Positions 1-3,000 of a stretch of 18,363 bases of DNA are shown piece after piece (position 1 is the stretch's first letter; the number at the start of each line of letters is the position of its first letter). Location of the stretch: positions 1 through 18,363 of IMG/VR virus record IMGVR_UViG_638341084_000012. One strand, 5' to 3'. The position numbers were made by a program. Origin of the DNA: a virus (lineage: Duplodnaviria; Heunggongvirae; Uroviricota; Caudoviricetes).

Positions 1-3000
1 CGCCTGTCCCGGTGCTGTTGCCAGGCAATAAGAAAACGAAGACCGGGCGGTTATGGACCTACGTTCGTGACGACCGTAACGCCGGGTCAACGCTGGCGCC
101 GGCGGTGTTGTTCGCTTACAGCCCGGACAGAAAAGGCATCCATCCGCAGACCCATCTTGCGGGGTTCAGTGGTGTACTGCAGGCGGATGCATACGCCGGG
201 TTCAACGAGCTGTACCGGGATGGCCGGATAACGGAAGCCGCCTGTTGGGCTCACGCCCGCCGTAAAATCCACGATGTGCACGTTCGCACCCCGTCAGCCC
301 TGACGGAGGAAGCGCTGAAACGGATCGGCGAACTGTACGCCATCGAGGCAGAGATAAGGGGAATGACGGCGGAGCAGCGCCTTGCCGAACGTCAGTTGAA
401 AACGAAACCGCTGCTGAAATCCCTGGAAAGCTGGCTGCGTGAAAAGATGAAAACCCTGTCGCGACACTCAGAACTGGCGAAAGCGTTCGCATACGCCCTG
501 AACCAGTGGCCGGCGCTGACGTACTATGCAGATGATGGCTGGGCTGAGGCGGACAATAACATCGCTGAAAATGCGTTGCGGATGGTCAGTCTGGGCCGCA
601 AAAACTACCTGTTCTTCGGTTCGGATCATGGAGGAGAGCGGGGAGCGCTGCTGTACAGCCTGATCGGGACGTGCAAACTGAACGGAGTGGAGCCAGAAAG
701 CTACCTCCGCTATGTCCTTGACGTCATAGCCGACTGGCCGATAAACCGGGTCGGCGAACTGCTCCCCTGGCGCGTAGCACTGCCGACTGAATAACACATC
801 CCCGTCAATACGGTTCTTGCTGCACGCTTACGGATAACGGGAGACGGGGTATGTACCAGATGGAAAAAATCACAACAGGTGTGTCATACACCACGTCAGC
901 GGTGGGAACGGGCTACTGGTTCCTGCAGTTGCTGGACAGGGTTTCCCCGTCTCAGTGGGCGGCAATAGGCGTGCTGGGGAGTCTGCTGTTTGGGCTGCTG
1001 ACATATCTGACTAACCTGTATTTCAAAATCAGAGAGGACCGTCGTAAGGCGGCGCGGGGAGAGTAAAGCGATGAAGAAAAAATACGAACTGGTTGTTAAA
1101 GGGATAAATAATTACCCGAATAAGATTACTGTTACTGTGGCACTGGAAATTGGTGGGTATCCGTCACTGTTGTTGCCAGATGTGGCGATTAGTCTTGACC
1201 GTACTGAAGATGCCACGCTGGAGTTTTACGAAGCTGAGGCGAAAAAGCAGGCGAAGCAGTTTTTCATGGATGTTGCTGCCGGGTTATGTGAAGGGGATGA
1301 GCAGTCGCCGGAAAAGTGCCCCGTAATTTTAGAGGCGCAGAATGTGTGGATAACCTACAAAGGAAAGCTACCAGGAAGAATTACTGGTTCTCTGAAGACT
1401 CCTCCGGAATCACAACCTTAAGTCACTGACCAGAACAGATAAACCTGTCCGTGGGCAGAAACCGATAAATCCTGATAAATATCCATGAACGCAAAAATCA
1501 GATACGGCCTGTCGGCTGCCGTTCTGGCACTGATTGCCGTCGGTGCGCCCGCGCCTGATATTCTCGACCAGTTTCTGGATGAAAAAGAGGGTAACCACAC
1601 TACGGCATACCGCGATGGTTCCGGCATCTGGACCATCTGTCGGGGGGCCACGATGGTGGATGGAAAACCCGTTTTTCCCGGTATGAAACTGTCGAAGGAA
1701 AAATGCGACCAGGTCAACGCCATTGAGCGTGATAAGGCGCTGGCATGGGTGGAGAAAAACATCAAAGTGGCATTGAGCGAACCCCAGAAAGCGGGGATCG
1801 CGTCATTCTGTCCGTACAACATTGGTCCCGGTAAGTGTTTCCCGTCGACGTTTTATAAACGAATTAATGCAGGTGATCGCAGGGGAGCGTGTGAGGCGAT
1901 TCGCTGGTGGATTAAGGACGGTGGCAGAGACTGCCGTATTCGTTCAAACAACTGCTACGGTCAGGTATCCCGTCGTGACCAGGAGAGCGCGCTGGCGTGC
2001 TGGGGTATCGACAGATAAGCAGAATATTTTGCTGAAAAATAAGGCATGGCCACGCGGGCGGATAACACGAAATCCTGCGAACTGGCGAAACGTAAGTGAA
2101 TAAAAGTAAAAACCCCGTTTGTTGGCAGCAAGCGGGGTTTTGTTTTTATGGCAGTAAGCTATGGGAGGCTGCCTTGATTGATTTTAGCAAACTGATTAGG
2201 GAGTTGCGACTCATGATTAGTCAATTACCAAACTGGAAATTTTTGCTGGTCTGGAGCATCCCTTTTTTATGGGTAGTATCCCAGTTAATTGTGGCAATTA
2301 AGGGGTAGCTATGTCAGACAAACTCATAACGCCGGCAAAGGTCCTGTGTGTGATTGTCGGTATTTCATTTTCACTAATGCTGGTTGCTCTTTTTCTGTCC
2401 CTCGCCTGGGTGATGTTGTCTTCGTCGGGGCTGCTGGGGTGACAGTGACTGATGACATCAGCAGAGCGCTGGCTTTTGCTATTAAGTGGGTGGCTGTTGG
2501 TATTGCTGTGTCTCCGATGCTATATGGGCTGGCAAAACTGGTCATTGCGCTGAAATCGTGAACTTTAAAAAGATGAGTGCTGAACTTATTCGGGCAATGG
2601 CATTTGCCATTCGTATTGTGGCCATTGCTGTTCTGGTCTGGGCAATCCGTTGGTGGTGATATGAACCGTGTTCTGTGTGTGGTGATTATTGTCATGCTGG
2701 TGGCCTGTGGTGCGCTTAGTCTGGGGCTGAATCATTACCGTGATAACGCCATTACCTACAAAGCCCAGCGCGACAAAAATGTCAGAGAACTGAAGCTGGC
2801 GAACGCGGCAATTACTGACATGCAGATGCGTCAGCGTGATGTTGCTGCGCTCGATGCAAAATACTCGAGGGAATTAGCCGATGCGAGAGCTGAAAATGAA
2901 ACTCTTCGCGCTGACGTTGCCGCTGGTCGTAAGCGCCTGCGTATCAACGCCACCTGTCCAGGTCCCGTGCGTGAAGCCACCGGCACCGCCCGCGTGGATA

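Follow-up and report, generated by a model that had tools for sequence, protein, structure and literature searches.

Our study reports on T1, a hairpin with the features of a Rho-independent terminator that lies inside the lysis cassette of a lambdoid Escherichia coli prophage, in a window of 18,363 nucleotides of viral DNA (IMG/VR record IMGVR_UViG_638341084_000012, positions 1 to 18,363). From its sequence, fold and position we conclude, with moderate confidence, that T1 (2109-2141 plus the U-tract) is a functional terminator which belongs, in Shiga toxin (Stx)-like lambdoid phages, to the 3' end of the endolysin module of phage-21 type, at the left joint of a recombination and 'moron' hot spot between the endolysin gene R and the spanin gene Rz, and that it stops unmodified RNA polymerase while being passed by polymerase modified by Q. 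The element itself appears to be undescribed; its kind is well known. Its parts are as follows.

2099-2112, plus strand: A-tract AATAAAAGTAAAAA, complementary to the U-tract; in the fold it extends the stem through A-U pairs, and read on the minus strand it is the U-tail
2113-2137, plus strand: T1 core hairpin, CCCCGTTTGTT, loop GGC and AGCAAGCGGGG; -16.2 kcal/mol for the core alone
2138-2149, plus strand: U-tract TTTTGTTTTTAT, where the RNA 3' ends of rightward transcripts terminated at T1 are expected

Structure of T1 and selection upon it

The sequence from 2099 to 2150 is laid out as AATAAAAGTAAAAA-CCCCGTTTGTT-GGC-AGCAAGCGGGG-TTTTGTTTTTAT, and T1 starts 90 nt 3' of the R stop codon (2016-2018). 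In a consensus scan of the window the stem at 2109-2141 comprises 15 pairs, six of them G-C, with a loop of 3 and the tail GTTTTTATGG; it ranks first of 36 terminator-like sites, the runner-up having 7-9 pairs. The stem is built on a GC-based core of 9-11 bp with a CCCCG/CGGGG base, directly followed by the U-rich tract UUUUGUUUUUAU (2138-2149), in which 10 of 12 positions are U. A free-energy calculation, proposed as a check in the first-pass annotation of this DNA, gives -23.8 kcal/mol for plus-strand RNA from 2100 to 2155, against -11.3 +/- 2.6 kcal/mol for shuffled sequences (z-score -4.83; 0 of 200 shuffles as good). The minus strand folds to -15.3 kcal/mol (z -4.25) and continues into UUUUUACUUUUAUU; its hairpin is the weaker because the G.U pairs of the plus strand turn into C.A mismatches. 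That annotation had described a strong intrinsic terminator with an A-tract 90 bp past the endolysin stop, and the sequence, scan rank and fold bear out this description. It had also called the hairpin possibly bidirectional, which is fair in that A- and U-tracts flank it and both strands fold with z below -4, with the plus strand clearly favoured. As for a convergent unit, there is no minus-strand gene, and only promoter-like motifs occur, in two of the three downstream families considered below. The sole open reading frame (ORF) that crosses T1, from GTG 2096, was rejected as a coding origin of the hairpin: its frame is not conserved and its stops differ among relatives, and T1 is therefore non-coding.

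To compare T1 among phages we collected 120 viral contigs with an exact match to an 18-mer from the block that follows R and added annotated phages and Sakai prophages, giving 126 loci. T1 follows the shared motif GTGAATAAA in 92 of them, and in the remaining 34 its place is taken by another hairpin whose tail is T-rich. In four loci this is T2, which is related to T1 (CCCCGG...CCGGGG); in 30 Ant-type loci it is T3, which is unrelated to T1 and reads GAGGCACC-GTAA-GGTGCCTT plus TTGTCATTTCT. In the Ant-type Stx phages (L003, L005 and others) T3 lies about 95-130 nt past the R stop, nested in an outer CGCAGA...TCTGCG pairing, and a G-to-A change disrupts its inner stem in 13 of 30 copies. The T2 hairpin (for instance in L067 and L039) is followed on the plus strand by TTGACA, 13 nt and TATAAT, ahead of an ORF for a 50-amino-acid membrane peptide; both hexamers are perfect, their spacing is non-canonical, and the T2 family may have a genuine moron promoter here.

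T1 is under purifying selection, as its diversity across 73 distinct haplotypes demonstrates. The A-tract has a nucleotide diversity of 0.005, the 5' stem of 0.022 and the U-tail of 0.043, compared with 0.20 at four-fold degenerate sites in the neighbouring R gene of these sequences. The stem and tracts thus vary 5-40 times less than R synonymous sites, and high diversity within T1 is confined to two positions of the apical loop. Among 23 distinct variants, pairing is retained in 90.6% of stem cells, versus 46-58% with slid partners; at stem pair 23-37 the U.G is replaced by A-U, G-C or U-A, a compensatory pattern, and metagenome copies add more fully paired variants. The compared sequences are closely related and the evidence from covariation is therefore modest; the contrast in diversity is the stronger argument for selection. 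T1 thus presents what is expected of an intrinsic terminator, namely a GC-rich stem with a short loop, a U-tract, a non-coding site past the end of a gene, and a structure under selection.

T1 is widespread: of 5426 complete E. coli genomes 1969 carry it, in a total of 3159 copies, with up to 7 per genome; among the matches listed in these genomes no annotated feature lies under it, and the hairpin is unmarked in all annotated records inspected. It is also found in the classical phage H-19B and in Sakai prophage Sp4, where the counterpart of the expected 3' ends lies on the minus strand of NC_002695.2 at about 1184820-1184824, and is abundant in human-gut metagenomes. A scan of genome contigs with an AT-rich 17-mer returned chance matches throughout, with L241 as the sole true homologue, and is uninformative on spread across species. 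The K-12 prophage Qin was ruled out as a source of transcript maps, having the same R family but neither the gap nor T1.

Position of T1 in the late operon

The window covers the late region of the prophage, read here from left to right. The genes and elements around T1 are listed here.

851-1066, plus strand: phage-21-type holin
1071-1421, plus strand: DUF1327/YdfR-like gene
1485-2018, plus strand: endolysin R, a phage-21-type lysozyme of 177 amino acids (Pfam Phage_lysozyme, 7.7e-24; PHROG endolysin, 1.6e-61)
2019-2104, plus strand: conserved untranslated block after R, about 86 nt, common to nearly all Stx-type phages
2150-2173, plus strand: 'hairpin 2' (GGCAG...CTGCC), seen in the fold of 2100-2240; it contains the Shine-Dalgarno sequence GGGAGG (2163-2168) of mini-ORF 1
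2174-2308, plus strand: mini-ORF 1, single-pass membrane peptide of 44 amino acids from TTG 2174 or 31 from ATG 2213 (PHROG 6632, 6e-05)
2311-2442, plus strand: mini-ORF 2, small membrane peptide
2445-2561, plus strand: mini-ORF 3, small membrane peptide
2573-2659, plus strand: mini-ORF 4, small membrane peptide
2661-3128, plus strand: Rz (Pfam Phage_lysis, 2.1e-51; PHROG Rz-like spanin, 2e-76)
2881-3066, plus strand: Rz1 ORF, embedded in Rz
3578-4054, plus strand: small terminase terS (DUF1441), with the large terminase terL and structural genes beyond

T1 sits on the left joint of the R-Rz gap, as follows from where homology to other families breaks: at 2104 for the T3 types, at 2115 for T2 and at 2147-2150 for the c-type families (2147 in Sakai Sp4-type loci, 2150 in L008-type loci). 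Beyond these breakpoints homology resumes solely in a shared mini-ORF or at Rz, which is the right border of the variable gap, and in most families T1 moves with the R side. The gap measures 288-1899 nt in 115 complete loci and holds shuffled sets of four small membrane-peptide families, antirepressor (ant) genes and DNA methyltransferases. No gap exists in Sakai Sp3 or in K-12 Qin, whose rrrQ belongs to the same family as R (85% identity, with homology ending at 2028). In the window it spans 2019-2660 (642 nt) and is 100% identical to E. coli 55989, while the window overall is about 98% identical to the same prophage region of that strain.

The mini-ORFs are combinatorially shuffled among loci. 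Mini-ORFs 2-4 match PHROGs 4906 and 1115/3246/4493, all without assigned function, and none of the mini-ORFs has a Pfam, NCBIfam or PADLOC match. Mini-ORF 1 probably starts at TTG 2174, 5 nt past GGGAGG, and is taken to be coding from there because a synonymous AGG/CGG change occurs in DFSKLIRE between families. In the loci inspected the last peptide ends in ...IRWW*, and its ORF runs into the start codon of Rz. A layout that recurs in the downstream families a, b and c has a different 5-bp hairpin directly past the U-tract, which adjoins the Shine-Dalgarno sequence of mini-ORF 1 or encloses it.

On the plus strand no sigma-70-like promoter was found in 1850-2720, relaxed thresholds included. 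In the absence of a rightward promoter past T1 the mini-ORFs, Rz/Rz1 and the virion genes therefore need polymerase that passes T1; mini-ORF 1 is the first gene to do so, and Rz is the first essential late function 3' of the hairpin. We propose that polymerase without Q modification would release its transcript at about 2146-2150, whether it had initiated at promoters supplied by an insertion sequence (IS) or a moron, or whether spurious initiation or read-through in the lysogen had brought it there, and that the mini-ORFs, Rz/Rz1, the terminase and roughly 20 kb of morphogenesis genes would thereby remain silent in the lysogen. After induction, Q-modified polymerase from the late promoter would pass T1, as it passes the terminator tR', and the promoterless genes downstream would be expressed in this way. 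The commonest T1 variants retain their G.U pairs, and rightward termination would be the main selected function since G.U pairs predominate and form only in rightward RNA.

This model accords with what is established for related phages. The late genes of lambdoid and Stx phages are transcribed from PR' by a Q-modified, terminator-resistant polymerase, and without Q transcription stops at intrinsic terminators (PMC7547250). Predicted terminators within the late operon of P22-like phages have been called 'not unique', with their role unknown, and the roles suggested there are partial termination or the stopping of transcription begun without the antiterminator (PMC8022706). The first-pass annotation had regarded a terminator within a lambdoid late operon as unexpected, a view that does not hold in light of this resistance and these precedents. 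It was right to place the hairpin at the left boundary of a variable R-Rz segment, as the homology breakpoints and the gapless Qin and Sp3 loci attest. With regard to the block downstream, its suggestion that only antiterminated transcripts reach the mini-ORFs, Rz and Rz1 fits our data, whereas its alternative of separate transcription is at odds with the lack of a plus-strand promoter.

Several observations weigh against our proposal. The Q gene and the late promoter PR' are absent from the window, the left end of which falls within an IS66-family element. A CGAGG variant that weakens the stem to about -12 kcal/mol makes up 23 of 117 metagenome copies, and T3 is degraded to about -9 kcal/mol in many Ant-type phages; the function is therefore dispensable in some lineages. 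Nor is the benefit of insulation obvious, because a terminator placed past S and R leaves the dangerous genes themselves unguarded.

The window contains two inverted IS66-family copies, at 1-830 and 4561-7013. The window starts inside the first, which ends about 20 nt before the holin start codon and reads toward the holin; the lysis cassette may thus receive IS-derived transcription. The second splits the large terminase gene and is flanked by the 8-bp target duplication GGATTACC, and the prophage is therefore packaging-defective. A further terminator-like hairpin on the minus strand (3542-3558, CCGCTGAACAAAAGTGG plus CTCTTTTTTT) lies 20 nt upstream of the small terminase start and faces left into the Rz-terS intergenic region. 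Just 3' of Rz, the segment 3129-3315 (especially about 3203-3250 on the minus strand) is 96% identical to the Sakai Sp9 locus of the Hfq-bound small RNA (sRNA) HnrS (EcOnc12), which was recently found to repress hha (PMC13502914). A copy of hnrS, convergent with the late operon, is very likely present in the window; Rfam 15 contains no HnrS model.

Alternative roles for the hairpin

The symmetry of T1 raises the possibility, which we regard as unlikely, that it is truly bidirectional and has been selected in part to end a leftward cis-antisense RNA of about 75-100 nt that would start within mini-ORF 1 and cover its Shine-Dalgarno sequence and start codon. RNAs of this kind would form an undescribed family that masks the ribosome-binding site of the first membrane-peptide gene. 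The stable minus-strand hairpin with its following tail is consistent with such a role, and the A-tract that would form this tail is the least variable part of T1; the G.U pairs, which weaken the minus-strand hairpin, argue in the other direction. In two independent downstream families, promoter-like sites on the minus strand point at T1 from a distance of no more than about 100 nt; the background rate of such sites, taken from 2.1 Mb of related phage DNA, is 0.024 per 100 nt on each strand. The sequence is TGcTAAAAT in family a (the window type) and family b, and TGGACA-18-TATACT in family c (the Sakai Sp4 type). The site in the window came from a custom scan and is speculative:

2181-2209, minus strand: putative promoter-like site, TCGCAA, 17 nt, TGcTAAAAT, with the -10 element at 2186-2181

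The leftward RNA predicted from it would be about 75 nt long, starting near 2174 and ending at the minus-strand T1 (fold -21.9 kcal/mol, z -2.9), and the predicted RNAs are laid out in the manner of sRNAs, with an anti-Shine-Dalgarno region, a 5-bp hairpin, an A-rich linker and a terminator. However, the promoter-like motifs fall within coding sequence (DFSK and KYK codons), which is an alternative cause of their conservation, and no such site is present in a third downstream family (L312) or in the T3/Ant family. The Hfq-crosslinking table, from which peaks within 100 bp of coding regions were excluded, contains no sRNA in the Sakai Sp4 R-Rz gap, and the idea is a speculative one that arose post hoc. 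Another minus-strand promoter-like site, at 2317-2288, was rejected for lack of conservation in L003, an Ant-type relative.

A role at the level of RNA is a doubtful prospect: T1 could act as a 3' stabilizer, shielding processed S-R mRNA against exonucleases and fixing the proportion between upstream and downstream messages, or it could be the 3' end of an Hfq-binding sRNA from the R 3' untranslated region. Attention is drawn to this by the block of about 86 nt after R, which is kept across otherwise mosaic phages. Matches to it occur in 319 phage records, most of them ending at query position 86-95 (window 2104-2113), and its diversity is about 0.14 compared with 0.20-0.22 at synonymous sites when the columns fixed by the search pattern are excluded. 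The first 22 nt after the R stop (2019-2040, GCAGAATATTTTGCTGAAAAAT) form a small 6-bp hairpin that is almost invariant across 85 haplotypes, with a diversity of about 0.01 versus 0.20 at R synonymous sites. The region 2016-2150 folds well as a whole (z -4.2), and an (ARN)n-like run, AAUAAAAGUAAAAA, adjoins the U-rich terminator tail. Against such a role, the middle of the block is highly variable, as are the 20 nt that follow its first 22, a G interrupts the U-tail (U4-G-U5), no promoter was found within or ahead of the block, and R mRNA is expected to be scarce in lysogens. The block is not translated: a small ORF of 17 amino acids from ATG 2046 was rejected because its start and frame differ in relatives, and no conserved ORF was found in 2019-2104 among the relatives compared.

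Searches for sRNAs bear on both of these readings. Rfam 15 at gathering thresholds gave no match in the whole window, with AgvB, AsxR, Esr41, STnc100 and OhsC among the families covered; the best score was 20.1 bits for ohsC_RNA, against a threshold of 50, and came from the terminator alone. A permissive Rfam scan of 1900-2750 returned ohsC_RNA, the rnk leader and BSnc120, hits that are at chance level, terminator-driven and accordingly discounted. We located no published sRNA in the R-Rz gap: AgvB/AsxR-type sRNAs and PasA/C/D lie between Q and S, PasB among the structural genes, and HnrS past Rz. The table from Hfq crosslinking and analysis of cDNA (Hfq-CRAC; Tree et al.) has no EcOnc entry in the Sakai Sp4 R-Rz gap; an sRNA from the R 3' untranslated region would have been missed there because peaks within 100 bp of coding regions were excluded. 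The candidates EcOnc33 (Sp6), which maps upstream of S, and EcOnc13/32 (Sp3), which map before the holin, were set aside, as none lies in the R-Rz gap.

It is very unlikely that T1 has no selected function and is a palindromic scar or linker at the mosaic joint, retained as homology for recombination between phages: breakpoints flank it at 2104/2115 and 2147-2150, weakened variants circulate, and the close kinship of the sequences means that shuffle controls overstate covariation, but the low diversity of its stem and tracts relative to neighbouring synonymous sites, the clustering of changes in the loop, the compensatory changes, and the unrelated T-rich-tailed hairpins at the same position in the T2 and T3 families all speak against it.

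Relation to known systems and significance

A terminator that halts unmodified polymerase and yields to Q has close counterparts in tR' and the downstream late terminators of lambda and the Stx phages, which like T1 are intrinsic hairpins on the strand of the late operon with promoterless essential late genes beyond. Since no promoter serves the essential late genes past T1 alone, passage of polymerase through it would have to rely on antitermination. The two differ in position and product, tR' being proximal to the promoter and yielding the 6S/StxS RNA, whereas T1 lies about 1.3 kb into the lysis cassette, past R, and has no known transcript. The intra-operon terminators of the P22-like phage L are also predicted to be Rho-independent and stand at the end of a gene module in a late operon with a single promoter (PMC8022706). 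They belong to another phage group and end the procapsid module; T1 adds population-level evidence of selection and a position at a moron hot spot.

A moron is a unit of promoter, gene and terminator, as Juhala et al. (2000) are cited in PMC4104026, and an 'ant moron' is known from P22-like phages (PMC2629481). The T1 locus resembles morons in lying at the edge of an insertion-tolerant, variable segment of the late operon that holds ant, methyltransferases and small ORFs. It departs from them in that T1 precedes the accessory genes and travels with the R module in most families, that no moron promoter of the accessory genes' own is detectable on the plus strand in 1850-2720, and that no hairpin stands between the last mini-ORF and Rz.

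T1 also shares symmetrical A- and U-tracts, and the ability of both strands to fold, with the bidirectional intrinsic terminators of E. coli, whose arrangement of A-tract, hairpin and U-tract is said to have been described by Ju and colleagues in Nature Microbiology in 2019. Unlike these, T1 has no annotated convergent gene, and its minus-strand hairpin is about 8 kcal/mol weaker on account of the G.U pairs.

Control of small hydrophobic ORFs or of ant by cis-antisense RNA is known from the type I toxin-antitoxin pairs hok/sok and ibs/Sib and from the P22 sar RNA, which acts against ant. The likeness to T1 pertains only to the speculative antisense reading, in which a leftward RNA with a Rho-independent end would overlie the ribosome-binding site of a membrane-peptide gene. 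The leftward RNA, any toxicity of the peptide and any homology to these systems are hypothetical, and the weak, subthreshold ohsC_RNA match is on the other strand. If that reading were true, about a third of E. coli genomes would carry, embedded in the lysis cassette at the R-Rz hot spot, modules akin to type I toxin-antitoxin pairs or to sar.

T1 is real, yet for a late operon read by a terminator-resistant polymerase such a feature is fairly ordinary. It leaves the current picture of lambdoid late transcription unchanged, and only the speculative antisense RNA would add a new regulatory layer. Because it marks where a hot spot of small-gene exchange begins on the left, it is useful for annotation and for the design of reporter and deletion constructs in Stx phages. 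If T1 works as we propose, it would be a transcriptional checkpoint between the holin-endolysin pair and the accessory peptides, spanins and virion genes, and this checkpoint would be shared by a prophage family, the Stx phages included, that is very common in E. coli and Shigella.

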